A DNA stretch of 64,000 nt from an uncultured Planctomycetales bacterium (lineage in GTDB: Bacteria > Omnitrophota > Gorgyraeia > Zapsychrales > JANLHA01), in contig CAYYRJ010000008.1 in the NCBI GenBank assembly GCA_964474085.1, positions 23,677 to 87,676 on the forward strand, read 5' to 3'. The notes beneath the pieces are model-generated. The model was not told the DNA's origin and searched no databases. It saw only the letters and a list, made by a program, of their open reading frames with translations. The translations under genes were made by a program, and so were the position numbers. This document shows positions 2,943 through 16,702 of the stretch, piece after piece (positions within the stretch are counted from its first letter, which is position 1; the number at the start of each line of letters is the position of its first letter).

Positions 2943-4844
2943 ATGACTGAACATCAAAATCAATGCGCTACTTGTAATCATAATGATACAAGGCAGGAGT
3001 TTGATGTAACAAAGAATGTATTTCTGATTGCCGTATCTTTGATTCTATTTGTTTGCGGTTTGATTTTTAATCGTCAGTTGCATGAAACGCCCGCTTTTGA
3101 ATATGGACTCTTTCTTTTTGTCTATTTCCTAAGCGGGCGTTTTGTTTTATTAAATGCTTTCCGTAATATTATTCGTGGCCGCATTTTTGATGAAAATTTT
3201 TTGATGAGTATTGCGACCATTGGTGCAATTGCAATTCATCAGCTGCCTGAAGCAGTCGCGGTGATGATTTTCTATCAGGTGGGGGAGTTCTTTCAAGAAA
3301 TCGCACTTAACCGATCTAGACGTTCCATCAAGGCTCTTCTTGAATTAAGGCCGGATTACGCGAATTTAAAACTCAATGGTGAATTTAAAAGAATTTCGCC
3401 TCAAGAGGTTAAAATTGACCAATTGATTGTGATTAAGCCTGGGGAAAAAATCCCTCTGGATGGAGTAGTCATAGAAGGTAGTTCGCAATTAGATACTTCA
3501 GCTTTGACTGGAGAATCTATACCTAGAACAATCAAGTCCGGCGAGGTAGTTTTGGCTGGGATGATTAATAAAACCGGCCTTCTTACCGTCAAAGTTACAA
3601 AGTCATTTGGAGAATCATCTATCTCAAGAATTTTGGAATTGGTTGAGAATGCCAGTAGCAAAAAAGCTGAGACTGAGAAATTTATTACTAAAATTTCGGC
3701 TTATTACACACCCGTTGTCGTTCTGATCGCTTTATTAATTGCTGTCGTTCCACCGCTGATTCTTGCTGGTCAAAGCTTCGACACATGGATTTACCGTGCG
3801 CTGGTTATTTTGGTTATTTCTTGTCCATGCGCGTTAGTGATAAGTATTCCATTGGGTTATTTTGGCGGTATCGGGGGAGCGGCTCGCAGGGGTGTCTTGA
3901 TTAAAGGTTCTAATTTCCTAGACGTTCTTACAGAGATCAAGACAATTGTATTTGATAAGACGGGAACGCTTACTAAAGGTGTTTTTAAAGTAACAGAGGT
4001 TATCGTAAGGAATGGATTTAATCAAAATGAGATCCTTGAATTCACTGCAATAGCTGAATCACAATCCAATCATCCAATTTCTAAATCGATTGTGGAGTCT
4101 TACGGGAAAAGAATTGATTTGTCAGAAGTTTCGGGATTTCAGGAAATATCCGGGCATGGGATTAAAGCTATAGTTCGCGGGAAAGAAGTCATTGCCGGAA
4201 ATGATCGTTTGCTTCACGCCGAGAATATTGAACATGATGTCTGCGAAGTTGTCGGAACTGTTGTTCATGTTGCTATTGATGGACGTTACTGTGGATATAT
4301 CGTCATTTCGGATGAGCTTAAGGATGATGCAGTTCAAGCAATCGAGTCACTAAGAAATGCTGGGATCGAAAAGATTGTTATGTTGACCGGAGATAACAAA
4401 TTCTCAGCGGGAGCAATCGCTAAACGGTTAAACATAGATTCATTTTATGCGGAATTGCTTCCAGAAGATAAGGTCAAGCACTTAGAGGAGATTCAAAAAT
4501 CTCAAGGACATAAAGTTGCTTTTGTTGGAGATGGCATAAACGATGCCCCAGTTTTAGCTCGAGCGGATGTCGGCATAGCGATGGGTGCTTTGGGTTCAGA
4601 TGTTGCGGTCGAAACGGCAGATATTGTCATTATGGCCGATTCTGTTTCTAAAATTGTGACGGCAATTGATATGGCTAAAAGAACCCGTCAAATAATTTGG
4701 CAGAATATATGGCTTGCTTTGGTTGTTAAATCAGTCTTTATTATTTTAGGAAGTTTTGGAGTGGCAACGATGTGGGAAGCTGTGTTCGCGGATATGGGCG
4801 TTGCCCTGCTGTCTATTCTGAATGCAACCCGGCTGTTAAAATAA
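2943..4844 (+). CDS. Heavy-metal translocating P1B-type ATPase (Cd/Zn/Pb-like)
   Basis: CPC motif (SCPCALV), TGES, DKTGTLT, GDGINDAP and MVGDGINDAP-type motifs, and an N-terminal Cys/His metal-binding region. Confidence 0.9.
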   Translation: MTEHQNQCATCNHNDTRQEFDVTKNVFLIAVSLILFVCGLIFNRQLHETPAFEYGLFLFVYFLSGRFVLLNAFRNIIRGRIFDENFLMSIATIGAIAIHQLPEAVAVMIFYQVGEFFQEIALNRSRRSIKALLELRPDYANLKLNGEFKRISPQEVKIDQLIVIKPGEKIPLDGVVIEGSSQLDTSALTGESIPRTIKSGEVVLAGMINKTGLLTVKVTKSFGESSISRILELVENASSKKAETEKFITKISAYYTPVVVLIALLIAVVPPLILAGQSFDTWIYRALVILVISCPCALVISIPLGYFGGIGGAARRGVLIKGSNFLDVLTEIKTIVFDKTGTLTKGVFKVTEVIVRNGFNQNEILEFTAIAESQSNHPISKSIVESYGKRIDLSEVSGFQEISGHGIKAIVRGKEVIAGNDRLLHAENIEHDVCEVVGTVVHVAIDGRYCGYIVISDELKDDAVQAIESLRNAGIEKIVMLTGDNKFSAGAIAKRLNIDSFYAELLPEDKVKHLEEIQKSQGHKVAFVGDGINDAPVLARADVGIAMGALGSDVAVETADIVIMADSVSKIVTAIDMAKRTRQIIWQNIWLALVVKSVFIILGSFGVATMWEAVFADMGVALLSILNATRLLK

Positions 4845-4863
4845 TGGCACAAATCCGGCACAA
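4845..4863 (+). repeat. TGGCACAAATCCGGCACA repeat unit (sigma-54-like TGGCAC-N5-nGGCA). A second copy lies at 5073-5107.
   Basis: 19-nt direct repeat (1 mismatch) on both sides of the orphan tRNA fragment. Matches the -24/-12 sigma-54 spacing. Confidence 0.35.
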
Positions 4864-4930
4864 GAATTTTTGAGGTTTTATAAGTTTAGTTATTTGAAGA
4901 GGTTGTGTAGGAGCCTAGTTCTCTCATAAC

Positions 4931-4967
4931 CTGAAGGTCACAGGTTCAAATCCTGTCCCCGCAACCA
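4931..4967 (+). pseudogene. Orphan tRNA 3' half (T-arm, 3' acceptor strand, discriminator and CCA) with no 5' half
   Basis: acagg-TTCAAAT-cctgt T-arm followed by ccccgca-a-CCA. The complementary 5' acceptor tgcgggg is not present upstream. Confidence 0.5.
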
Positions 4968-4973
4968 AATAAA

Positions 4974-5005
4974 AACCCAGTTTCCGACGAGGATTCTGGG
5001 TTTTT
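4974..5005 (+). terminator. Putative rho-independent terminator
   Basis: aacccag ... ctgggtt stem followed by a T-run, immediately after the tRNA fragment. Confidence 0.35.
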
Positions 5006-5072
5006 GTTTGCCTTGTGCAAATCTTCAATTACTGCCAATTTTGATGAATTTGGGCCATTTTTGATGTAAAGT

Positions 5073-5107
5073 TGGCACAAATCTGGCACATTTTTGGCAC
5101 ATCAAAA
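5073..5107 (+). promoter_or_regulatory. Three tandem TGGCACA boxes (sigma-54-like -24/-12 element) about 100 bp upstream of the island cargo gene
   Basis: tggcacaaatctggcacatttttggcacatc. Boxes are spaced 11-12 bp apart. The first two form TGGCAC-N5-TGGCA. Confidence 0.35.
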
Positions 5108-5208
5108 TCCCCCCTTTGACACCCCATAGTTGCTCGGTCGAAATAATAGCGTGAAAAAGATAAGAGTGTTAAAATAGAAAATTATTATTAATCCCTTTTT
5201 GGGTTTTT

Positions 5209-7845
5209 ATGAGAGACGCAGATAAAAAAATTAAAGAAGCAATTTCAATGGGTGAAAGAAATTTAGAGCTAATTAAATTGGCTCAGAATTTTTGTGCTCA
5301 TATGAGATTGGAAAAAGCGAGAATGGGTGGTACTGGCATCGTTGAACAAATGACCGGGCTGCCAATTGGATCAATGTCTTGTGGTTGCAAATATGCACGT
5401 GCCAACGGTTTTAGTGGCGGGGATACTGAAACGATCGCTATAGATTTTTACGACAGGAATTGTGTTGATTGTGATAAGCGATCTCCTGTAGGCATACCAA
5501 ATTTATTAAACTTAATTGAGGAAAAAAAGAAAAACGAATTAGAACGAAAAAGACAACAAGAGACGCAACAAGCAATATATGAAAAAACTAAGGCTGTTGA
5601 ATTAGAGGCGCGAAGAATCGAAAGGTCTAAGCTGCGTAATGATGACCTCTCGAGGAACTCAATCCTTGATCTTATTGATAAAATAGATGGAGGTTCCCAT
5701 GAAGATGCTGATAAATTAATTGAAACAGCAAAGATAGCACCAGATAAATTTGATTTGGATATTCAAAATGCTCTTTTTAGTCTCATAGATGGTGGGAATT
5801 TCTCTAATGTCGAGTCGGCCATAGAAACACTTACAATAATTGCGAATAATGGCCAATCGATTAATACGGATACAAGAGTAAACTTCAGTTGCAATGAACG
5901 GGAATTGATAGATATTGATCGATTAGTAGTTTCCTCGCTCAAAGCTCTGGATAGAGGTTCAGGGCATAACGAGGCAGCTACAGCAGTTGAATTTTGGCTC
6001 GATAAAAAACATGAAGTATATATAACCGACGATGTAATTGAAGGATTAATCCGCATCGCTTACCCTGCAAGAGAACCACTCTCATTTAGCGCCACTGTTT
6101 ATAGGCCTAGCCCTTTGCAAAGAATATATGATATTTTTCCAGAAAAAGTTTTAGCTACTGTAAGAAAGCTTTTAGCAATCGATGAGAAATGGATTAGAGT
6201 TTCGGCTGCAGGAGCTGCTCGATATATCATAGAAAAAGATGCTCAGTTTGGAATCAATATAGCCGAAACTTTATTGGATTCGTTAGACTTATCCGATGAT
6301 ATGTACGACGGTGGATCTGCTCGAGTAGCTGCCATGCATACTCTGGGAAAAGCTCTTAGTGAAGCGCCAAATGAAATTGATAAGTTCATCCAGGGAAAAA
6401 TTGAAAAAATATCCTCTCATTTAAGAGGGGATATTTTTTATGCATATGATGCGATCTTCCGAGAAGACAGGCGTGGAAAAAAGAGAGAGCTTCCAGAAAA
6501 TCTAAGAAATTTGGTCATCAAAAGACTTTTGGAAACTCTAATACTCAAACCGGATGATGAAAGACTTGAAAAAGCAACGGATATATTGCAAGGATTTGAA
6601 TATGGCCATATGGAATATCTCATCGGCCATGAAGATTTACTTTTGGGAGCGGCTGCACAAATAGCTGCGGAGTTAGACAATCCATATAGCTTGCTTACTG
6701 ATCCTCGGCCAGATTCAATCAAGATGATGGAGTCGACTACGAGACGTATCCATCTTCAATCTGCGTTGGAAGTTATCATGAAGCATGTTGGCTATTTGGG
6801 GAAGATTCGACCTCTTACGATAGGTAATCAAGTCGTCGAGTGTATAAATAATTTAAAGGAGCACAGCGGCCATTTAAAAAGCGCGCTCATTTCTACACTC
6901 GGATATATTGGATCTAGCGCTCAAGGATTGCCTTTGGTCTTACCAAGTCTTAGTTCTGGATTCAGTGATTCCAATTCTTTAGTTCGTTCTTGCGCGGTTG
7001 AATCGTACGGTAATCTTACTTCCCATAAGTCAGTAAGTTTACCATCCTCTTTACATGAATTATTTTGTGCATCTCTTAGCGATCCCTATGTCTTGGTACA
7101 TACGCGAGCCGTTGAGGTATTGCGAAAGTCCCGCCTCCCAGAGGAATATGTTCCTTTAATAAGGAATAAGTTAATCCTTCTAATGTTGGTTTATCGCCAA
7201 GAAAAGAATGGTGCAGATTTTCTAGCAAGATGCATTGATGAACTATTGAATTTAACTGACAGATTCCAACTTGTTGAATCGAAGCTTGCTAATTTTGTTT
7301 TAGGGATAATGCCTCTTATTTCCCCGTATGAGAGGGTTAAAACGTTCATTTTTCATCGCCATCAATTAAAGGAAGCGGAGAAATATTCAGAGCAAGTCGC
7401 AACTTTATTAAATGAAGAGTATCTTTATGGTTTAAACATAGGTGAAGCTATGGAGCTTGTTGGTGAATTACCTGTTGCAGAGGTGTTACGGATCAGGTCC
7501 ATTCTTAAAGATGCAGCTAAGAAATTGATTAGCAATAATCTGTACGGCTATTCTTTGGAAATAATTGAGTTGTTATCAATTGCTTATTGCTGGGATGCGG
7601 CCCACGAGGTGGTTGAATTTTTTGTTAATTCCATTGAAGACACGACAGAAAATAAACCTTTGAGGTTGAAGGCTCTGGCTTATCAGTCCGCCGTAGGACT
7701 AGAAGTAGCAATATTATCCAAAGATGATGCAAAAGCGGAATATTATCGTAAGACGTGGAAAGAAAATCTAATAAAAATACAAAAAGACAATGAGACAAAC
7801 GCAGACAGAAGAAGTTTTTTTAGAGGCATACGATTGCCGCGTTAA
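5209..7845 (+). CDS. Large uncharacterised protein (878 aa) with an N-terminal Cys cluster and HEAT/ARM-like repeats; island cargo
   Basis: Long ORF; Cys motif CGC...CVDC; repeated VRxxAxExL-like helical repeats; AT-rich codon usage. Confidence 0.7.
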   Translation: MRDADKKIKEAISMGERNLELIKLAQNFCAHMRLEKARMGGTGIVEQMTGLPIGSMSCGCKYARANGFSGGDTETIAIDFYDRNCVDCDKRSPVGIPNLLNLIEEKKKNELERKRQQETQQAIYEKTKAVELEARRIERSKLRNDDLSRNSILDLIDKIDGGSHEDADKLIETAKIAPDKFDLDIQNALFSLIDGGNFSNVESAIETLTIIANNGQSINTDTRVNFSCNERELIDIDRLVVSSLKALDRGSGHNEAATAVEFWLDKKHEVYITDDVIEGLIRIAYPAREPLSFSATVYRPSPLQRIYDIFPEKVLATVRKLLAIDEKWIRVSAAGAARYIIEKDAQFGINIAETLLDSLDLSDDMYDGGSARVAAMHTLGKALSEAPNEIDKFIQGKIEKISSHLRGDIFYAYDAIFREDRRGKKRELPENLRNLVIKRLLETLILKPDDERLEKATDILQGFEYGHMEYLIGHEDLLLGAAAQIAAELDNPYSLLTDPRPDSIKMMESTTRRIHLQSALEVIMKHVGYLGKIRPLTIGNQVVECINNLKEHSGHLKSALISTLGYIGSSAQGLPLVLPSLSSGFSDSNSLVRSCAVESYGNLTSHKSVSLPSSLHELFCASLSDPYVLVHTRAVEVLRKSRLPEEYVPLIRNKLILLMLVYRQEKNGADFLARCIDELLNLTDRFQLVESKLANFVLGIMPLISPYERVKTFIFHRHQLKEAEKYSEQVATLLNEEYLYGLNIGEAMELVGELPVAEVLRIRSILKDAAKKLISNNLYGYSLEIIELLSIAYCWDAAHEVVEFFVNSIEDTTENKPLRLKALAYQSAVGLEVAILSKDDAKAEYYRKTWKENLIKIQKDNETNADRRSFFRGIRLPR

Positions 7846-7867
7846 TATTATTAACGGTATAGCTGAT

Positions 7868-9250
7868 ATGAAAAGCGTTGGGGAAAAGTGTTCCGCGCTT
7901 AATAATATCAAGTCTGATATCGATAAAATTATTGAGCTATTAGGCAATAATTATGTGAAGGAGTTTTATTTAATTTTTAAGAGTTTATTTACTGCCTATG
8001 AATTTCTAACGCAATGGGAAGAAGCTGTAAAGAATGCCGCTGAGAATTCAGGTCGATTTCACGAAGCGTATAAATATCACATCAAAGAAGCATTTAAGAA
8101 AATTAATGGGTTAGAACCTAATAAAGATTTGGTTAATGCAGCTAGCGGCATGGACAATATTGTTGTAACCGATGATATCGGGAAAGCCTTAAAATCTTTA
8201 TCCGCTATCCCGTTGCCTTTACCAATTCATTGGGAAGAGGATCCGGAGTTAAAAAAACATTATCTACAAGAAACAAAAAATGCAAAACGAGAGCCGATGA
8301 TAACGGCATTCTTAAATTTTAAGATTAATAATGAAAACCTTCAAGATCCACACCTTATCGATCCAAATACTTTATACGATTTAAATTTAGAAGTCCGAAT
8401 AAACAGATGGCCGGGAAATTCAGAGAAGCTGGTAATTCAGCCATTATCAGATGTCACAGGAGAGAATTATCAAATGCCAACATTTGAAATATCAAAGAAT
8501 GAAAAGAATAAGACTTATCACGTCTCGGGAAGAATGGCGATAAAGATTGGGCAAACATTTGAATCGCAACCGTTAGAGTTTGTATATCAGGCATATATTT
8601 TGCCAGGACAAGAAGTTATCGCTGTTACAGGAAATAACCGGATAAATGTGAGGAGTAATTCTGAAGGCAAGCTCATAATATCTGGATATTACGAGGCAGA
8701 TAAAGTATTAATGACAGTAAGATCAAAAATAACGAAAGAAGCAGGCATCACTTCTGAGCAAAGAATCAACTTTTTGCTAGTGATGAAGCATCTCGCTAAT
8801 ATAGCTGGACAAGCATTAGCATCTAATGATTTCCCGGACGTTTGGGCTGAGAAAGACTTTCAGACGGAGATCAGGAAGCGATTGCGCGCTGTTCCTGAAA
8901 TAGGAAGTCAATTGCTTGAGCATCCTAATGTCGCGGCTGGTATACCAGATTTGTTTTTCAAAAAACTGCAAATAGAACTGAAAACCCAGAACGAAAAGAT
9001 AGTCACTTTAGATAATGCTCAATCATTTTCGCAACAGGGAGCTCAATATGTGGCAGGATCGGATAATCGTTTAGGAATTATTTGTATTCTGGATTGTTCT
9101 GACAAGAAGCTGGCTCCGGGATCATTAATGAATGACATTGGATTGATTTCTGTTCCAGTGCCAGGAATTATTCAGGGTGGTTTTCCTTTGATATTGGGTG
9201 TGGTAATAATTCGAGGTAATCTGGGGAAGCCCAGCTCATTTAGTAAGTAA
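7868..9250 (+). CDS. Uncharacterised protein (about 460 aa) with a C-terminal PD-(D/E)xK-like motif; island cargo
   Basis: ORF 7790-9250; the likely start is ATG 7868, which avoids overlap with the upstream gene. Motif GIPDLFFKKLQIELK near the C-terminus. Confidence 0.6.
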   Translation: MKSVGEKCSALNNIKSDIDKIIELLGNNYVKEFYLIFKSLFTAYEFLTQWEEAVKNAAENSGRFHEAYKYHIKEAFKKINGLEPNKDLVNAASGMDNIVVTDDIGKALKSLSAIPLPLPIHWEEDPELKKHYLQETKNAKREPMITAFLNFKINNENLQDPHLIDPNTLYDLNLEVRINRWPGNSEKLVIQPLSDVTGENYQMPTFEISKNEKNKTYHVSGRMAIKIGQTFESQPLEFVYQAYILPGQEVIAVTGNNRINVRSNSEGKLIISGYYEADKVLMTVRSKITKEAGITSEQRINFLLVMKHLANIAGQALASNDFPDVWAEKDFQTEIRKRLRAVPEIGSQLLEHPNVAAGIPDLFFKKLQIELKTQNEKIVTLDNAQSFSQQGAQYVAGSDNRLGIICILDCSDKKLAPGSLMNDIGLISVPVPGIIQGGFPLILGVVIIRGNLGKPSSFSK

Positions 9251-9251
9251 C

Positions 9252-9479
9252 TTAAGGTAGAAAGAATTTTGTAGGCTTTTTATATATCTTGGCTAGTTCT
9301 TGGAGTTGTACGAGGTCAATTCGACGTTGGCCGGATTCGATTTTAGAAATATAAGATTGGGTTCGCCCCAGTTTATCCGCAGCATCTTCCTGCCGCAATT
9401 TTGCTTCCTCGCGGGCTTTGATCAGTAGTCCAACCAAGCGCTGATGTTCTTTGGAGTAAATGGTTTTCTTTGCAGGCAT
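9252..9479 (-). CDS. XRE-family HTH transcriptional regulator (cI/Cro-like)
   Basis: 75 aa; Q-x-x-L-A-x-x-L-G-x-x-Q-S-Y-I-S-K-I-E HTH signature. Confidence 0.7.
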   Translation of the reverse strand: MPAKKTIYSKEHQRLVGLLIKAREEAKLRQEDAADKLGRTQSYISKIESGQRRIDLVQLQELAKIYKKPTKFFLP

Positions 9480-9510
9480 AAGTATTGTCTTCCCCTATAA
9501 AAAATGATAT

Positions 9511-9540
9511 ATTCCATTATGTAATATGCCAAAATGGAAT
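9511..9540 (+). promoter_or_regulatory. Palindromic operator ATTCCATT-N14-AATGGAAT in the divergent region between the XRE gene and the lipoprotein gene
   Basis: Perfect 8-bp inverted repeats read directly in the sequence. Confidence 0.45.
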
Positions 9541-9551
9541 ATGGAGGCATC

Positions 9552-9998
9552 ATGCGAAATATTGCTCTGATTGTAATTTTGCTTTGCTTCATGGGGTGTT
9601 CGGCCACGGAGTGGAATCAATTGATGTGGGGTAATCCTAACGGGCCGCAGCCAGCCCCTAAACAGTACGGCGCTCTATGTATTACTTGCCAACGTGATTT
9701 TGTGGTGACTGAGCAGATTATTAGTGCTGGGAAGGGAGTTGTTTGTCCATATTGTGGCAAAGAGCAAGATATTCAGATGGCCATGAACCGGTACACATAT
9801 CAAACCCAGCAGCAACAAGAAGTAGCTAATCAGGCTTTTTGGCAAAAGCGACAAGAGACTTTACAGCGAAGGAGAGAAGAAGAGCAGAAAGCAAGTGAGG
9901 AACGGAAAAAATGGTTGTTAGCTCCAAGTCAACGACAATCCACGCATACAAGTTGTAGCCCTAATGGGAGTGGTGGGTTTTCTTGCAATTCTTGGTAA
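9552..9998 (+). CDS. Lipoprotein with a CxxC...CxxC zinc-ribbon and a charged, Q-rich C-terminal helix
   Basis: Signal peptide MRNIALIVILLCFMGCS; motifs CITC...CPYC; QQQQE/RRREEEQK low-complexity region. Confidence 0.5.
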   Translation: MRNIALIVILLCFMGCSATEWNQLMWGNPNGPQPAPKQYGALCITCQRDFVVTEQIISAGKGVVCPYCGKEQDIQMAMNRYTYQTQQQQEVANQAFWQKRQETLQRRREEEQKASEERKKWLLAPSQRQSTHTSCSPNGSGGFSCNSW

Positions 9999-10288
9999 GA
10001 ATATTATTTAAAGAGAGCATTGAAACATGGTTTTTTGCAAAAATTTGTTGATTTTTATTTAAAATTATGGTCTAATTAAAATACGGTTGACAGTACCCGT
10101 ATAAAAAAACTGGTCACTTCTATCCGTCGAAAAGGATCCTTGTTTAAGGGATTAAATGGACGGCTCTACGAAGGGTATCGAGCAGGAAATAGTTGAATCG
10201 CTCGGAACTCTTCGTTTTTTTATTTATTGGCCGAAGATTCGAGCAAGCGCTTGAGTCCTCGGTTTTTTTATTGTTCAAAAGGAGCCAA

Positions 10289-10480
10289 ATGAGAAATGAT
10301 AACTTTTTGAATCAGATTCGTAAGAGGCAAAAGTTAAAACTTAAGGATATTTCCAGTAAAACGGGATTGAGCGTTGGATATTTAGGAACAATTTTTTCCG
10401 GGAGACTTTCATTTGTACCTGAGCAGACCAAAAGTAAGATCGCCATGGCATTGGGTGTTTCAAAAAAATTTATTTATTAA
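10289..10480 (+). CDS. Small XRE-type HTH protein
   Basis: LKDISSKTGLSVGYLGTIFSG HTH. The ORF is listed from 10193 but the likely start is ATG 10289. Confidence 0.45.
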   Translation: MRNDNFLNQIRKRQKLKLKDISSKTGLSVGYLGTIFSGRLSFVPEQTKSKIAMALGVSKKFIY

Positions 10481-10868
10481 GGCATGTGAATTTAATTTTT
10501 GGGCGCCTTTTTGAACTAAACAATTTTGACTAGACCTCATATATAAACGAAAGAGAAAAGATGCTCAACCATGCTTTAACCTATTTAAGACGAGGGTGGG
10601 CTGTATTCCAGGTACAAGTTAAAGAGCTGTTCGGGTGTAAATTCCATGCGTTCTTTCTTTGAGTTTGCGTTCGTAATAGGTTCCAATGGTGGCATCCTTT
10701 TGGCAGTATATTCTTTTTTCGCCTAAAGTTAATTAACCCTTCCGCTTGAGGTCACTGTCGCTGAAAAAATGGGGGAGCATACGGTCAAAGCGGGTTTAAT
10801 TTCCAAATCAAATACTTCTGCGAGAGATGCGTTGTTGAAATTGAATCTTGTAAAAAAGTGAAGGCCTT

Positions 10869-12842
10869 ATGTACAAAGTATTTTGGAACCAAGTAATATC
10901 TCCTCGCCGATTATCAAATGGACATTATATTGCCAACTGCCCACTATGCGGCGAAACAGACGGACATTTCTACGCTAATTATTTATCCGGCCAGTGGGAC
11001 TGTAAAAAATGCCAAGCCAAGGGCAACGCGGTCACGTTCCTGCGGGATCACCAGAGGATGCCGGACGCCCAGATCGCTAATGAACTAAACCGATTAGGTA
11101 TAGCCTCAACTTCTGAATCACAAAGGTTACCCCAACCCAAGAGCGAATACAAGATTTTTGATGAGAAGATGGTCGATTATTATTGTTCCCAATTATCCAC
11201 GGACAAGAAGGCGGAATTTGCCGCGGAGCGCGGGCTGTCTGTTGAGATATTGGATAAGTACCGGCTGGGGATCAATGATATTGGCGAGTTCACTCTCCCC
11301 GTATTCGATACTCAAGGAAAGATTAGAAACATCCTAAGGAAAAAGCCGGGAGAGTCGACCATTTCAATTCAAGGCGGCGAAGGGTTACTTTTCGGAGTTG
11401 AGGACTTAATCGCGCCGGTTATTTTTGTAGTTGAAGGTCCGTGGTCGGCCATGGCCTTAAAAGAACGCGGATTTAAGGCGGTCGGGACTCCCGGGGCCGG
11501 GATTTTGAAGGATAGCCAAGTTGACTTGTTTAAAAGCAAGGAAGTCTATCTAATCCCGGACAACGACGAACCTGGCAGGAAGGGGATGGCGTCAATCGCC
11601 CAGAAGCTCCGCGGCGTTGCGGAAAGCGTTTATACGATAAGTCTACCAGTCCCGGAGAAGAAGGATGCCCGTGATTTCTTTAAGGCTGGTGGTACCGTGG
11701 ACCAGCTTGAGGAACTTATCAAGCAGGCCCGAGAGAATCCGTCTGTGATGGCAGAGTCAGAAATTGAGAAGCACTCCAGCCATAAAAAGTTGTCACCCGT
11801 TCCCAGTTACGACGAATTTATTAAGCAAGAGTTCCCTCCAGTTGAGTTTTTTATCGGTAGTGTAGACGGAGGTGCCTTATTGCAAAAGAACGGGATTACC
11901 ATGATCAGCGCGGAATTTGGCAAGGGCAAAACGCTTTTGGGTTTAAACATGGCTTGGGCCATTACTAAGGGCGTTGATATTTTCCTGGGCTTTCCCGTTA
12001 AGAAGGCCCGGGGGCTTTATTTGATATTTGAGGGCGGCAATTCGTCATTTCAGAAGCGATTAAAGGCCATAGGCGAAGGGGAGTCGAACCCGGACTTATA
12101 CGTGAAGTGTATCGTTCACTCGTTTAATTTGACCCCTACCGGGAACGAGAAGACCGAAGACCAGAAGGAATTTGAGGAAGAGATTGAACGACTTAAGGTC
12201 GACTTTGTTGTTATTGACAACGCCGCGAATGTTTTTTCTGGGGATGAGAATGATCAAAAGCAAGTTAAGCCGTTTATGGATTACCTGATCTCGGTTAAGG
12301 AGAAATTCAGGGTGTCATTTATTATTTTACGGCATTGGAAGAAGACTCAAGCCAAGGGCGGTAGCCCAAAAAGGCAAATGGCAACAGGGTCAATATGGTG
12401 GCTTAACGCGGTGGATAACCAGATATGCCTATCGGGTGAGTCCATAGACAGTATTATCCTAAGCACCGAAAAGGAACGGAACTGTGCTTCATTCTCGCCC
12501 AAAGTGGTCACAATTACAAAGCCGGATTTACATTTTAAGTTTCTCAAGGATTTTGCCAGCAACGGTCCGCGCTATACCGAAGACAACACGCTCCTGCCTG
12601 CTTGGGAGAGTTTCGGGGCCACCCGGGTTAAGCAGACGGACTTGGTTGTCAAGATGACCCAGATTGTCCAGGCCGGTGGGGCTAAGTGTTCAAAACGGAC
12701 AGCTAGTGGGCTTTTAGACAATAGTAAGCGCTTCTTTAAGACGCCTATCGTTCCCGGTAGCAGGAAATCTGGCAATTGGATCGCTTTAAAGCCGGATTCT
12801 GGTATTGAACTTTTTGACGAGGGTGAGGACAATGTTTCTTAA
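10869..12842 (+). CDS. Bifunctional primase-helicase (CHC2-like zinc finger, Toprim, RepA/DnaB-like P-loop)
   Basis: CPLCG...CKKC zinc motif; Toprim E (VVEGPW) and DxD (PDNDEPG); Walker A AEFGKGKT. Architecture typical of P4-alpha/PICI-type replication initiators. Confidence 0.85.
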   Translation: MYKVFWNQVISPRRLSNGHYIANCPLCGETDGHFYANYLSGQWDCKKCQAKGNAVTFLRDHQRMPDAQIANELNRLGIASTSESQRLPQPKSEYKIFDEKMVDYYCSQLSTDKKAEFAAERGLSVEILDKYRLGINDIGEFTLPVFDTQGKIRNILRKKPGESTISIQGGEGLLFGVEDLIAPVIFVVEGPWSAMALKERGFKAVGTPGAGILKDSQVDLFKSKEVYLIPDNDEPGRKGMASIAQKLRGVAESVYTISLPVPEKKDARDFFKAGGTVDQLEELIKQARENPSVMAESEIEKHSSHKKLSPVPSYDEFIKQEFPPVEFFIGSVDGGALLQKNGITMISAEFGKGKTLLGLNMAWAITKGVDIFLGFPVKKARGLYLIFEGGNSSFQKRLKAIGEGESNPDLYVKCIVHSFNLTPTGNEKTEDQKEFEEEIERLKVDFVVIDNAANVFSGDENDQKQVKPFMDYLISVKEKFRVSFIILRHWKKTQAKGGSPKRQMATGSIWWLNAVDNQICLSGESIDSIILSTEKERNCASFSPKVVTITKPDLHFKFLKDFASNGPRYTEDNTLLPAWESFGATRVKQTDLVVKMTQIVQAGGAKCSKRTASGLLDNSKRFFKTPIVPGSRKSGNWIALKPDSGIELFDEGEDNVS

Positions 12843-13068
12843 CTTATCATGCAAAATTGCCGTCTGCACTATAAATGAACGTAAATTTGGTTTCTTAACG
12901 TATGGTGCAAAACGTAATTTTGCATTAGAACGCCACAAAGACGCAAACGGTTGTGGTGCGCATAAAGCGCACAAACAACCTTGCGATGAGGTTTCTTATG
13001 CAGAGGAAAAACACTATATAGGGAAAGAAACGTTTGCATAAGAAAAAAAGAGGTTTGAAAGGAGAACA

Positions 13069-13511
13069 ATGGAGCTAACACCCTCGCATGAAATTTTTGC
13101 CCAGGAGTTGATCGTTAATAAAAGCAACCTAACGTCAGCGTATGCCAAAGCATATCCAAAGGCTTCTTATCCGTCTTGCCGTCAGGGAGTAAGCTGACAG
13201 AAATAATCGACCGTTTGCCACCGGGTCGCATGCGTTCTGATTACAGCAAAAAAAGGGACGCTTTGAGTTCTGTTTCTAGAGAAAAGGAAGAGGAATCAGA
13301 AAGAATAAGCGCGCTCGTGGATATAGCAAAACAAATGAACACGGACTGTTTTATGTGTAAAGAGGTCGTGGAGAAATTTGATCGCAATCAACCTTTAAGC
13401 GATGGAGATAAATATCATATACAATCGCATATCCCTGCGGTAGTCCGGTTGCGGGAATTCAAGGGAAAAGTTTTGGTGAGTATCAAATTATTGATTAACC
13501 ACATATTCTAA
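13069..13511 (+). pseudogene. Frameshifted terminase small-subunit-like gene. The N-terminal HTH is in one frame and the remainder in the +1 frame.
   Basis: 42-aa ORF MELTPSHEIFAQELIVNKSNLTSAYAKAYPKASY matches the TerS N-terminal LTPKQE..F..EY...N.T.A...AGYS signature. ORF 13176-13511 continues in another frame from a TTG. Confidence 0.4.
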
Positions 13512-13972
13512 TTGGATAGGTTCCCGGATGGATCATGACCACAGAAGTTGCGCGCAAAAGGACAATAAGTGCGTGGAATTTAAGTTATAGTGCATAACTT
13601 ACTTTATATCAATTAGTTAAGTGCTGGTTAACATAACCTCAACTATGCGTAACTCATTATATTCCATATCTTTACGATTTGTTGACGCGATTCCCAGCTC
13701 GGCGGTATGTAATTTTACTTAACTTCAATAACTGCATATATTTACAATGAAAAATTAGATAGAAAATATGATGGGAATACACGCGCACGCACAGGTAAGT
13801 ACGTTTATAGCTGGACGCATGTTAGGGCAATTCCATATTTTAAAATTGGCAGGTTGCTACGATTCAAAAAGTCAGAAATCGATCGCTGGATCAACGAGCG
13901 CAGGGTTGAAGAAAGGATAATTTAGGAAGATTAGTTAATTTTAACAGTGAACGTTAAAAAAAGGAGCGAAAA

Positions 13973-14509
13973 ATGGAATCATCTTTTAAATTGAGTGTAA
14001 GTACTTTTATGAGACCAGATCAAGATATTCCGAAATTGATTAGAGCAATGATGAATGATTTGGGGGAGAAAACACCTGATTTTAGCTCGATTCAAGAGGC
14101 ACTGGACTGGTTGAATATGTCCACTGCACCTTTTAAGTTATTTCTAAATTTTATGTTTGAAGACTCCTTGGGTGAGCCGGGTAGGGACTGCCTCAAGAAA
14201 ATACATACAAAATATGGAAAATCACTTATTGAGTTTACATTTGAAGAACTTAAAAACTTTTCATTGACGCCAGAGGGGGAAGAGCTTAAGCGGGTGATTT
14301 TAGTGCGTAAATATCCTATAAGATTTAGCCCCATCGATACCGAATCGCGTGAGGAGTATATTTTTGAGAAAGCAAAATTGGTGTATAAGCTGATTGGGGA
14401 AATTCATTCAGTGATTAAGGCTGGACATAATCCACGAAATTTACTGGCGAGCATGGAGGATTTTCTTTCGGAACCAGAGTATCGATATTTCTTCGAGAGT
14501 GACTATTAA
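13973..14509 (+). CDS. Hypothetical protein (178 aa)
   Basis: ORF with RBS aaggagcg; no recognisable motif. Confidence 0.45.
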   Translation: MESSFKLSVSTFMRPDQDIPKLIRAMMNDLGEKTPDFSSIQEALDWLNMSTAPFKLFLNFMFEDSLGEPGRDCLKKIHTKYGKSLIEFTFEELKNFSLTPEGEELKRVILVRKYPIRFSPIDTESREEYIFEKAKLVYKLIGEIHSVIKAGHNPRNLLASMEDFLSEPEYRYFFESDY

Positions 14510-14558
14510 GAATGAACTCATTTAAGCAGACTTGCGGGGGTAGTTCTTAGGAACTTCG

Positions 14559-14741
14559 ATGGAAAAACGTTTTCTAAATAAAAAAGAACTGGCTGAGTAT
14601 CTGGGCGTTAAGGTTGGCACCCTGTCCGTCTGGGTTTGCTATCGAAAGATCCCGTTTGCCCGTATTGGCAGACTCGTAAAGTTTGACCTGCGTAAAATTG
14701 ATGCTTGGATAGCTGAAAACTCTGTTGAAGTTATGAACTGA
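14559..14741 (+). CDS. AlpA/excisionase-family HTH DNA-binding protein
   Basis: 60 aa; LNKKELAEYLGVKVGTLSVW...IPFARIGRLVKFD matches the Phage_AlpA / Xis HTH_17 pattern. Located upstream of int. Confidence 0.7.
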   Translation: MEKRFLNKKELAEYLGVKVGTLSVWVCYRKIPFARIGRLVKFDLRKIDAWIAENSVEVMN

Positions 14742-14771
14742 TGTTGGTATAATTTGGCGTAAACGCAATTA

Positions 14772-14800
14772 TTGACAATGTATATACATAGATATACAAT
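14772..14800 (+). promoter_or_regulatory. Near-consensus sigma-70 promoter TTGACA-N17-TACAAT with the 12-bp palindrome ATGTATATACAT in the spacer
   Basis: Read directly from the sequence; located upstream of the RHH-int operon. Confidence 0.5.
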
Positions 14801-14811
14801 GGGAGCGTGAG

Positions 14812-14958
14812 ATGTCGAGAGATGAACAGATCAATATCCGCTTAACTCAGGACGAAAAAAAGCAGATTCAGAAAGATGCCCAAGAGCAGGAAAGAACAGC
14901 CAGTAATTTGCTTTTGTGGTGCTGGAAAGAATGGCGAAAGTCGAAAGCGAAGAAATAG
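14812..14958 (+). CDS. Ribbon-helix-helix (CopG/Arc-like) small protein, 48 aa
   Basis: INIRLTQDEKKQIQKDAQEQERTASNLL RHH signature. RBS gggag. Stop TAG sits 1 nt before the int ATG. Confidence 0.5.
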   Translation: MSRDEQINIRLTQDEKKQIQKDAQEQERTASNLLLWCWKEWRKSKAKK

Positions 14959-14959
14959 C

Positions 14960-16078
14960 ATGAATGGTGTATTCCAAAACAAAAAGACTGGGAATTGGTT
15001 TATCGATTATCGCTTGCCTAATGGCAGGCGTCGGCGGGAAACCATTGGCACAAGCAAGAAGCTGGCAGAGAATGTTTTGAGCAAGCGCAAGGTCGGAATT
15101 GCCGAAGGAAAGTTTCTTGATGTTGTTAAGAAGGAGCGTATTAAATTTGAAGATTTTGCCCAAGAATATTTTACTATTCATTCCAAGCAGCACAAGAAGG
15201 GTTGGCAAACTGATTCGTTTAATATAAAAATTTTGAATAGGTTTTTTAAGGGTAAGTATTTATACGAAATCACGCCAGTTGATATCGAGCATTTTAAAAT
15301 CGAGCGGCTCAAAGAAAAGGTTGGCTTAAAAACGATCTCTCTCTCGACTGTTAATCGACAGTTGGACACGCTGCGCGGGATTCTAAATAAAGCAGTCTCG
15401 TGGGGTAAATTGCAAACTAATCCCATGAAGTCAGTTCAATCACTTAAGGTAGCTCCGGGGCGACTTCGTTTTCTTGAGAAAGAGGAGATCGTCAAGCTCT
15501 TATCAAATTGTACGAAAAATCTGCGGCCTATTGTGGTCTTAGCTTTATTTACTGGTATGCGCCGGGGTGAGATTCTTGGTCTTAAATGGCATGATATCGA
15601 CGTTAAGCGGAATATTATTACTCTGTTGGAAACAAAGAATAATCAGAAAAGAGAAGTGCCTATGAGCGAGCATGTAAAAACTGCTCTTATCCGTGTTAGA
15701 AAGCATCCAGATTGCGCATATGTTTTTTGTAATGAAAAAGGTCTACCAGTGCATGACATTCGCAAATCTTACTCGACAGCGCTGCGAAAATCTGGTATAA
15801 AAGATTTTCGCTTTCACGACCTACGCCATACTTTCGCCAGTCAACTGGTCATGGCAGGCGTTGACATCAATACGGTCAGGGAGCTTTTAGGGCATAAAGA
15901 TATTACGATGACTTTACGATATAGTCATTTGGCCCCGAGGCATAAGCAACATGCCGTTGATATTTTGAGCAAGAAAATGGACACTTTTTGGACACTTGAG
16001 GCTAAGCCCAACAATGTTATGAAAAGTGATGTATCAGAAACCATTGAAAATAGATTAGTTACAAATTTCGGGGAGTAG
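14960..16078 (+). CDS. int: Tyrosine-type site-specific integrase
   Basis: R..HDLRHTF...[14 protein letters not shown] catalytic signature. N-terminal SAM-like domain. The 3' end overlaps the tRNA-Pro 5' end. Confidence 0.9.
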
Positions 16079-16145
16079 CGCAGGTGGCTAGCGCGCAACG
16101 TTCGGGACGTTGAGGTCGTGGGTTCAAATCCCACCTTCCCGACCA
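16069..16145 (+). tRNA. tRNA-Pro (anticodon CGG)
   Basis: Manual fold: acceptor cggggag/cttcccg, D-stem gcgc/gcgc, anticodon stem caacg/cgttg with loop ttCGGga, T-arm gtggg-ttcaaat-cccac, discriminator A, encoded CCA. Confidence 0.85.
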
Positions 16146-16180
16146 GACTATAAATAAACGCGCTGTATAAGTTTTGCTGA

Positions 16181-16254
16181 TTTAGGGAGTCCTTTTTAAG
16201 GCGAATTGCGCCATAGAGGCGCCAATCAAATGAGCCGTAAAAGGACTCCTTAAA
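16181..16254 (+). other. Long imperfect hairpin (about 17-bp stem) enclosing an inner gcgcc/ggcgc hairpin, downstream of tRNA-Pro
   Basis: tttagggagtccttttta ... taaaaggactccttaaa inverted repeat. Confidence 0.3.
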
Positions 16255-16348
16255 TCGACAAGTATAGATATTAAATTGCAGTCTGTTAGAGTGTCCTTCC
16301 AATTTCCTACCTTTTATATAATGCTTTTTTCATTGAAAGGAGCCGGAT

Positions 16349-16702
16349 ATGTCTGAAGTCAACATCCAACCGAACTTAGAAATCGAACGCAACTGGGCGA
16401 TGCTGGCGCATTTTTTAGGGTTAGTCCCCATTCCTCTCGTTGGGATTTTAGGTCCGCTGGTTATTTTGCTAATTAAAAAAGGCGAATCAACTTTTGTTGA
16501 AACAAACGCCCGTGAAGCGATGAGTTTTCAAATTACCGTTTTGATCGCTGTCATGATCTCGGCTTGGCTGTGCCTCTTTTTAATCGGGTTTTTATTGCTT
16601 GGGATCATTTTTGTTGCGAATTTTATTTTGGTCATTAGCGCTGCGATCAAGGCAAAAAAAGGCGAAAATTTTCGGTATCCCTTTTCTTTGCGGTTCTTCT
16701 AG
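16349..16702 (+). CDS. Small membrane protein (DUF4870-like)
   Basis: ERNWAMLAHFLGLVPIP motif and several TM helices. Confidence 0.55.
   Translation: MSEVNIQPNLEIERNWAMLAHFLGLVPIPLVGILGPLVILLIKKGESTFVETNAREAMSFQITVLIAVMISAWLCLFLIGFLLLGIIFVANFILVISAAIKAKKGENFRYPFSLRFF

Follow-up and report, generated by a model that had tools for sequence, protein, structure and literature searches.

A divergent oloA-oloB operon, predicted to encode an Olokun anti-phage defence system, in a tRNA-Pro-associated integrative element

Two adjacent genes in the window analysed here, a stretch of 64,000 nucleotides from an uncultured bacterium, are best explained as a divergent oloA-oloB operon, that is, a predicted Olokun anti-phage defence system, a reading to which we assign a probability of roughly 0.85. 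PMC10121019 credits Millman et al. (2022) with the description of Olokun, and the passages on this system in a preprint (bioRxiv 10.1101/2025.07.10.664194) present the Pseudomonas system, PfOlokun, as a 2:2 complex of an adaptin-like OloA and OloB, a PD-(D/E)xK nuclease. The first of our two proteins (ORF1) matched the PADLOC OloA profile PDLC03925 with an E-value of 7.9e-20, its residues 70-689 aligning to positions 20-443 of the 596-position profile (coverage 71% for the profile and 70% for ORF1, the match ending at residue 689 of 878), and the second (ORF2) matched the OloB profile PDLC03926 (E 3.5e-12, residues 135-439). Their relatives matched the same profiles strongly: all 17 ORF1 homologues were recognized by the OloA profile (best E 4.5e-61, with near full-length profile coverage), one of them spanning profile positions 10-577, and 77 of the 81 ORF2 relatives were recognized by the OloB profile (best E 1.1e-57).

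A first-pass annotation, made from the letters of the DNA, had proposed a novel two-gene defence module in which a helical-repeat protein is paired with a PD-(D/E)xK nuclease, neither being recognized as a member of a named family. The PADLOC profiles and the conserved nuclease motif support the module as such. An undescribed system without named relatives would be in keeping with the absence of any significant family for either protein in Pfam, NCBIfam and PHROGs (or, in Pfam, for the 81 OloB relatives), and with searches of PDB chains by sequence using the family profiles, which detected no solved Olokun structure and gave weak helical and alphaRep matches only. However, both proteins and nearly all of their relatives match the Olokun profiles, and the pair agrees with the published passages on Olokun in the order of its domains and genes and in its type of nuclease; we regard an undescribed system as very improbable. 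Judged by its sequence, the pair is an addition to an already described system and no new type. It resembles known Olokun in being a two-gene operon with oloA followed by oloB, in a large OloA that lacks an NTPase motif and is probably of helical-repeat, adaptin-like build, in an OloB that combines an N-terminal helical domain with a PD-(D/E)xK nuclease, in matching both PADLOC models and in its location in defence and mobile islands.

Both ORFs were confirmed on the forward strand, with oloA first and oloB adjacent on the same strand (Table 1), in agreement with the linkage and the length of the first protein given in the first-pass annotation. The second protein had been put at about 460 aa, which corresponds to an internal ATG at 7868, and the genes had been called nearly overlapping. 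The oloB start is most likely at 7790, since the 26 residues upstream of the internal ATG are kept in 13 homologues and align within fused OloA-OloB proteins; counted from this first ATG the protein has 486 residues, and the two genes therefore overlap by 56 nt. Within the overlap, homologues keep both the tail of OloA (NxxRR...G) and the N-terminus of OloB. A programmed frameshift at the T-run at 7815-7821 was considered and dropped, as a -1 shift misses the oloB frame. The pair is AT-rich, as initially described: its GC content is 0.381, the window averages 0.436 (sd 0.022 between stretches of equal size), and the pair ranks lowest or second-lowest among 120 such stretches.

Table 1. Coordinates of the oloA-oloB pair, its predicted domains and the surrounding island (positions in the window)
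Feature	Position	Strand	Remarks
Three TGGCACA boxes	5073..5101	+	starts 5073, 5084, 5095; 11-nt spacing; end 108 nt before oloA ATG
oloA-like gene (ORF1)	5209..7845	+	878 aa, ATG start; probable helical-repeat, adaptin/HEAT-like partner protein of Olokun; PADLOC OloA match
Four-Cys region of OloA (C29, C60, C85, C88)	5293..5472	+	candidate metal-binding site
HEAT-signature stretch of OloA, residues 554-609	6868..7035	+	sole part with a sequence-detectable signature
oloA 3' end / oloB 5' end overlap	7790..7845	+	56 nt, two different reading frames
oloB-like gene (ORF2)	7790..9250	+	486 aa; predicted effector nuclease of Olokun; PADLOC OloB match, AF2 model
OloB N-terminal helical domain, residues 1-164	7790..8281	+	
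OloB middle beta-sandwich (Ig-like) domain, residues 172-289	8303..8656	+	strands in AF2 model
OloB C-terminal PD-(D/E)xK nuclease domain, residues 301-486	8690..9247	+	
OloB catalytic motif block	8849..9049	+	E354 ... D387 ... E396-L-K398 ... Q416-xxx-Y420; contains GIPDLFFKKLQIELK
XRE-type HTH regulator	9252..9479	-	75 aa; abuts oloB stop codon
Second HTH gene of island	10193..10480		
Primase-helicase of island	10869..12842	+	CHC2 zinc finger, Toprim, AAA_25
Tyrosine integrase of island	14876..16078	+	3' end overlaps tRNA-Pro by 10 nt
tRNA-Pro (CGG)	16069..16145	+	integrase end of island; ARAGORN

OloB (AF2 model with pLDDT 92.1) is a protein of three parts, in which an N-terminal helical domain and an Ig-like beta-sandwich precede a PD-(D/E)xK nuclease with E354, D387, E396 and K398 as its predicted catalytic residues and, in addition, a Q416-xxx-Y420 motif. 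For the middle domain, Foldseek searches of the PDB returned CARDB, NCX CBD1, RhoGDI/UNC119 and integrin beta-sandwich domains (E 1e-3 to 1e-4). The C-terminal domain has the alpha-beta-beta-beta-alpha-beta core of RecB/Cas4-type and restriction nucleases (Cas4 4r5q, McrC 6hz4, BamHI 1bam, Shedu SduA 8ps4) and, as in those enzymes, acidic residues and a lysine lie on strands 2 and 3, with QxxxY, the motif name for the helix motif of RecB-family nucleases, on the next helix. In an alignment of 81 OloB sequences with a mean column identity of 34%, G384, E396, K398, Q416 and Y420 show no variation, and conservation is at least 90% at both E354 and D387; in the model, these residues lie on helix 1, strands 2 and 3 and helix 2, and the predicted catalytic residues are intact in this protein. 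Conservation and model together support the D...ExK motif as the conserved catalytic core of the OloB nuclease. The first-pass annotation was right to suspect a nuclease motif in this region, but GIPDLFFKKLQIELK occupies residues 384-398, about 90 residues short of the C-terminus, rather than the end of the protein.

The same domain links OloB to Lamassu: over residues 350-486, its last 137 residues, ORF2 matches the C-terminal part of PADLOC LmuA (PDLC03853) with an E-value of 3.7e-8, as do 64 of the 81 relatives, with E-values down to 2.6e-21, consistent with homologous nuclease domains. This similarity might be taken to indicate a system of Lamassu type, or another nuclease system, with just the effector nuclease domain in common with OloB. 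We consider this hardly credible, as the LmuA match is limited to the nuclease domain and the N-terminal two-thirds of ORF2 differ from LmuA, whereas the OloB match extends upstream of the nuclease core and the neighbouring gene encodes a HEAT-like OloA instead of LmuB. No SMC or LmuB-like ORF was found between 4845 and 16145, and the island holds no other Lamassu partner.

The helical-repeat character attributed to the first protein is probable, although the HEAT/ARM-like array that had been described is only weakly detectable by sequence: the Pfam matches at residues 554-609, HEAT with E 0.0074 and HEAT_2 with E 0.02, were both under the gathering score, and the OloA family profile matched alphaRep (designed HEAT-type) chains over one stretch (E 3.8e-6). 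A P-loop motif was looked for in ORF1 and none was found. The CGC (C58, C60) and CVDC (C85, C88) motifs noted as an N-terminal cysteine cluster are present, but the conserved set consists of C29, C60, C85 and C88, which occur in 33, 34, 34 and 35, respectively, of 35 OloA-like sequences (20 of them OloA-OloB fusions), while C58 is not conserved across the family. These four cysteines are a candidate metal-binding site, and we propose that OloA is a non-enzymatic alpha-helical-repeat scaffold bearing this conserved N-terminal site.

The two genes recur as a pair, with the same order and adjacency, in five other, unrelated contexts. Single-protein OloA-OloB fusions of about 1300 aa account for 20 of the best 150 profile matches, and one is encoded on a Sorangium chromosome. 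Neighbours of defence type at other loci include GmrSD, BrxC_BrxD with a DEAD helicase and TerB, and an N6_N4 methyltransferase, and tblastn against plasmids gave a single partial match, in Rhizobium. Close relatives are few (14 and 17 for the two proteins among 5.8 billion proteins). With most of the family the pair shares 20-35% identity, and its specificity or regulation may for this reason differ from that of the rest.

Complex formation, DNA target and phage specificity can be predicted for this pair by analogy with the Pseudomonas system. In the complex expected of the two proteins, the N-domain of OloB would be held by OloA and a pair of nuclease domains would lie next to each other; upon phage infection, this complex would cut phage DNA and spare that of the host. 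The gene overlap and the natural fusions lend such an assembly indirect support. In the published passages, PfOlokun degrades T7, SECphi17 and SPO1 DNA in vitro but not E. coli DNA, and nuclease-site mutants lose dsDNA cleavage (bioRxiv 10.1101/2025.07.10.664194). The same source reports that the in vitro targets only partly match the in vivo defence and that plasmid DNA is nicked, which would also suit an abortive-infection or addiction module of the Olokun family, resembling a toxin-antitoxin pair. Here OloA would restrain OloB, and freed OloB would damage host DNA, killing infected cells or stabilizing the island, with no selective restriction of phage DNA; the tight coupling and overlap of the genes, their natural fusions and their place as mobile-element cargo fit such a module as well. 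Nevertheless, purified PfOlokun left E. coli genomic DNA undegraded, according to those passages, and fusions in about 13% of the top relatives fit a holoenzyme better than a labile antitoxin. We consider the addiction module unlikely and prefer a predicted Olokun complex directed at phage DNA.

Low in GC, the operon is cargo of an approximately 11 kb integrative element beside tRNA-Pro and sits at the end farthest from the integrase, the distal position being as the first-pass annotation had described it. The element encodes an integrase (Pfam Phage_integrase 9.6e-37; PHROG integrase 3.7e-82), a primase-helicase (Pfam AAA_25 5.7e-22, Toprim_2 5e-7; PHROG DNA primase/helicase 5.4e-36) and an XRE-type HTH protein that matches PHROG families of transcriptional regulators and repressors, with E-values down to 1.6e-10, and carries Pfam HTH_31/HTH_3 in the precomputed annotation of the identical contig. 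An integrase, a regulator and a primase/replication module, as looked for in satellites of the PICI or P4-like type, are all present. The earlier term "satellite-like" is nonetheless unproven: the island shows no recognizable genes for a capsid, for packaging or for helper hijacking, an absence that is weak evidence, and no att direct repeats were detected, nor a tRNA-Pro repeat at the left island end. The ORFs at 9534-9998, 13176-13511 and 13973-14509 had neither a PHROG nor a significant Pfam match, and that at 12805-13041 had no PHROG match. Breaks in Logan contigs at 4950, 5072 and 16097 were rejected as att sites, probably reflecting repeated k-mers (tRNA-like sequence and TGGCACA boxes). 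Exact-match scans of metagenome contigs with flank sequences returned nothing, and searches for the flanking ATPase and LigA led only to the NCBI assembly and to short Logan-run contigs, which also contain the pair. The description of this end of the island as variable is only partly apt, as a related island, whose integrase is 51% identical, bears the same gene pair.

The triple TGGCACA box that had been placed about 100 bp upstream of oloA was located (Table 1), and a two-box copy lies at 4845-4862. With 9 occurrences in the window against 6.0 expected, the heptamer is not enriched; its signal is tight clustering and not count. Since no such boxes were found upstream of oloA at other loci, they are probably features of the island or host setting and not of Olokun. 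A scan of viral contigs with TGGCACAAATCYGGCACA gave 9 matches, judged by a rough estimate to be near chance, and blastn of those viral loci against the island region 4701-16400 revealed no similarity.

Compared with known Olokun, the pair belongs to a deep-branching clade, with moderate profile E-values of 1e-12 to 1e-20 and only 14-17 close homologues known; its genes overlap, and it is carried by a small integrase/primase element in an uncultured bacterium of about 44% GC. The passages on Olokun in the preprint (bioRxiv 10.1101/2025.07.10.664194) make no mention of the conserved OloA four-cysteine set or the OloB Ig-like domain. It is conceivable, although rather doubtful, that this rare clade differs mechanistically from the Pseudomonas system, with the four cysteines binding zinc or an Fe-S cluster, with either these cysteines or the Ig-like domain serving as the phage-sensing or DNA-discriminating element, and with a carrier that is a true phage satellite using Olokun against competing phages. 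The locus is of value as a divergent Olokun operon of environmental origin, and so is the accompanying family-wide alignment, which fixes the OloB catalytic residues, exposes the conserved four-cysteine site of OloA and reveals recurrent OloA-OloB fusions, which argue for a single holoenzyme. The catalytic residues, the fusions and the cysteine site provide testable handles on Olokun.

The adjoining genes OloA-like ORF1 and OloB-like ORF2 (see the table) most probably form a divergent branch within the Olokun family and are a new member of a known defence family, an assignment to which we give a probability of roughly 0.85-0.9. General databases gave little indication of this, as ORF1 had only sub-threshold HEAT matches and ORF2 no credible match in Pfam, and neither was matched in NCBIfam or PHROGs. 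In the defence-specific PADLOC library, ORF1 matched OloA (PDLC03925; residues 70-689 aligned with positions 20-443 of the 596-position profile, E 7.9e-20) and ORF2 matched OloB (PDLC03926; E 3.5e-12, residues 135-439), while ORF2 residues 350-486 also matched the C-terminal part of one profile for the Lamassu effector LmuA (E 3.7e-8). Since these scores are moderate, the relatives of both proteins were checked against PADLOC as well. A word-indexed search of 5.8 billion proteins returned only 14 homologs of ORF2 and 17 of ORF1; a full search with a profile built from the ORF2 alignment returned 589 cluster representatives at E <= 1e-3, 266 of them at 1e-30 or better. The OloB profile was matched by 77 of 81 full-length ORF2 relatives (best 1.1e-57) and the LmuA C-terminal part by 64 of the 81. 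All 17 ORF1 relatives matched OloA (best 4.5e-61), and because the best of these matches span profile positions 10-577 (protein residues 10-854), the overall architecture is that of a canonical OloA. The first-pass annotation had considered the pair an unnamed system, which these profile matches to the pair and nearly all its relatives contradict; its reading of the anatomy (helical repeats, a Cys cluster, a D...ExK site, defence cargo) holds.

Features of the OloAB pair, its island, the OloB model and related loci
Feature	Position	Strand	Length	Remark
ORF1 (OloA-like)	5209-7845	+	878 aa	
ORF2 (OloB-like)	7790-9250	+	486 aa	
CzcA-like efflux, PII-like and YHS-domain genes				left of pair
P-type ATPase	2943-4844			left of pair
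tRNA 3' half, CAT anticodon loop, then terminator-like hairpin	about 4910-4968			left of pair
XRE regulator	9252-9479	-	75 aa	right of pair
Cys-containing putative lipoprotein	9534-9998		154 aa	right of pair
Second HTH gene				right of pair, between 154-aa ORF and primase-helicase
Primase-helicase	10869-12842			right of pair
Three small uncharacterized ORFs				between primase-helicase and integrase
Tyrosine integrase	14876-16078			3' end shares 10 nt with tRNA-Pro(CGG)
OloB helical domain	residues 1-164			AlphaFold2 model
OloB beta-sandwich (Ig-like)	residues 172-289			AlphaFold2 model
OloB alpha/beta domain	residues 301-486			AlphaFold2 model
Loci L003/L004				pair adjoins GmrSD type IV restriction gene
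Locus L006				pair on Planctomycetia MAG contig
Locus L007	5337-9293		1318 aa	single-chain OloA-OloB fusion, Sorangium sp. So ce726 chromosome
Locus L009				pair adjoins DEAD helicase, BrxC_BrxD and TerB proteins
Locus L010				pair on another integrase island, with N6_N4 methyltransferase
Locus L011				pair adjoins SNF2 and radical-SAM genes

Two linked genes had been proposed at this position; both are present as plus-strand ORFs, and the description needed only minor corrections. The earlier length of the second, about 460 aa, corresponds to an internal ATG at 7868. We place its start at 7790, based on the fact that the 26 residues preceding that ATG are kept in 12 of 13 ORF2 homologs (A13, R17 and I20 being nearly invariant) and fall within the aligned part of fused OloA-OloB proteins (profile positions 4-10 onward); ORF1 and ORF2 therefore share 56 nt, which they read in different frames. 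At a GC content of 0.381, where the window averages 0.436, the pair is about the lowest 4-kb stretch of the window.

The same gene order, overlapping or abutting, recurs in five other unrelated contexts, and fusions of an OloA-like N-terminal part to an OloB-like part (1160-1360 aa) account for 20 of the best 150 ORF2-profile matches. Such fusions and conserved adjacency argue that OloA and OloB work as a single unit. In L003 (5430-8056) and L004, the Cys-containing N-terminus of the OloA homolog is separated from the remainder by a frameshift at about residue 80, which is either an error of sequencing or the sign of a decaying copy. In an Acidobacteriota MAG (L008, 8001-8327), the recognizable OloB-like part comprises only the last ~112 nuclease-domain residues (51% identity) with no intact ORF, and looks like the remnant of a pseudogene; a 350-aa minus-strand ORF adjoins it.

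The AlphaFold2 model of OloB, built with an 81-sequence alignment (mean pLDDT 92.1), has a nuclease-like alpha/beta domain at its C-terminus. Across these 81 sequences (34% mean column identity), G384, E396, K398, Q416, Y420 and P481 are invariant, and conservation is 90% or higher at E354, D387 and K439; the motif GIPDLFFKKLQIELK corresponds to residues 384-398. In the modeled domain the first core helix begins with E354, D387 lies ahead of strand 2, strand 3 holds E396-L-K398 and the next helix holds Q416-xxx-Y420. The QxxxY motif is one that RecB/Cas4-type enzymes typically carry. As modeled, this layout is the classical nuclease arrangement, and for this reason the D...ExK active site suggested previously is correct. 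Lack of a nuclease-like fold, named in the first-pass annotation as grounds for refutation, is not what the model shows. Family membership, gene linkage and the nuclease fold with its catalytic residues are the parts of our account that the analysis shows.

OloA lacks a P-loop, as judged by a motif check of ORF1, and its HEAT signature is detectable by sequence only around residues 554-609; the rest of its repeat architecture is presumed from the family name and the published "adaptin-like" description. The CGC (C58, C60) and CVDC (C85, C88) motifs of the proposed Cys cluster are both present, and C29 (N-W/F-C), C60, C85 and C88 (N-C-x-x-C) are conserved in 33-35 of 35 OloA-like sequences, fusions included, while C58 is not. 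The conserved set is a candidate metal site, for zinc or Fe-S.

The reading of the pair as cargo of an integrative element, at the end opposite the tyrosine integrase, is supported. The label "satellite-like" is unproven, since comparison with PHROGs revealed no recognizable gene for a capsid, for packaging or for helper hijacking. On the related island L010, located at tRNA-Met, the OloAB pair is 51-55% identical to that of the window and the integrase 51% identical; the other genes differ. In both islands, 10 nt at the 5' end of the neighboring tRNA also belong to the integrase ORF (window 14876-16145, tRNA-Pro; L010 14433-15625, tRNA-Met), which puts the element on the 5' side of the tRNA, an unusual geometry. 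Just 3' of tRNA-Pro is a MamF_MmsF-family ORF (Pfam; about 16349-16702), and after it come an acylphosphatase gene and LigA, according to the annotation of the matching NCBI contig. The N-terminus of the 154-aa ORF, which is divergent to the XRE gene, resembles a signal peptide with a lipobox (LLCFMGC). The protein also contains two pairs of CxxC and a tail rich in Q and E, and it has no family match in Pfam or PHROGs; our guess is an island surface or exclusion protein.

A repeat search of the island ends found no flanking direct repeats. A Logan contig of 11,026 nt (run SRR12487046) coincides from end to end with window 5072-16097 (100% identity), and a second contig of that run stops at 4950. 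Repeated k-mers, rather than att sites, are the probable cause of these breaks; population heterogeneity for the island could also produce them. The tRNA 3' half (within 4893-5008; anticodon loop CTCATAA, T-arm and CCCCGCAACCA, then a hairpin and T-run) was not called by ARAGORN and is not a repeat of tRNA-Pro (16069-16145); possibly it was left behind when an earlier element integrated into a tRNA-Met-like gene. This fragment is bracketed by TGGCACAAATCCGGCACA (4845-4862), which immediately follows the stop codon of the ATPase gene, and by TGGCACAAATCTGGCACATTTTTGGCACA (5073-5101), 228 nt beyond.

The triple TGGCACA box noted upstream of the pair was confirmed, with copies at 5073, 5084 and 5095, the last ending 108 nt ahead of the ORF1 ATG. 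No such boxes were found upstream of oloA in the other loci, and they are probably a feature of the island or host site. Sigma-54 promoters have GG-N10-GC spacing (-24/-12), a pattern that adjacent boxes give through their 11-nt spacing; the boxes are candidates for a sigma-54-like promoter pattern or, alternatively, for iterated protein-binding sites.

For Pseudomonas Olokun, a preprint (bioRxiv 10.1101/2025.07.10.664194) describes a 2:2 OloA-OloB complex, backed by mass photometry and AlphaFold3, with OloA bound to the helical domain at the N-terminus of OloB and the two nuclease domains side by side. Once purified, the complex degraded T7, SECphi17 and SPO1 genomic DNA, but not that of E. 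coli, and nicked plasmid DNA; nuclease-site mutations abolished dsDNA cleavage and destabilized the complex. By homology, OloA of the window would be scaffold and regulator and OloB the effector, with phage DNA degraded upon infection; we infer complex formation, substrate and trigger by the same analogy. A module that acts through abortive infection, or one that serves for addiction, appears quite improbable, and an anti-phage mechanism by DNA degradation is likely at this locus.

What these data add to the knowledge of Olokun is small: a family-wide map of catalytic residues and the finding that OloA-OloB fusions are frequent. A third such addition consists of two features for which we found no mention in the parts of the preprint consulted, the conserved Cys4 site of OloA and the Ig-like domain of OloB.
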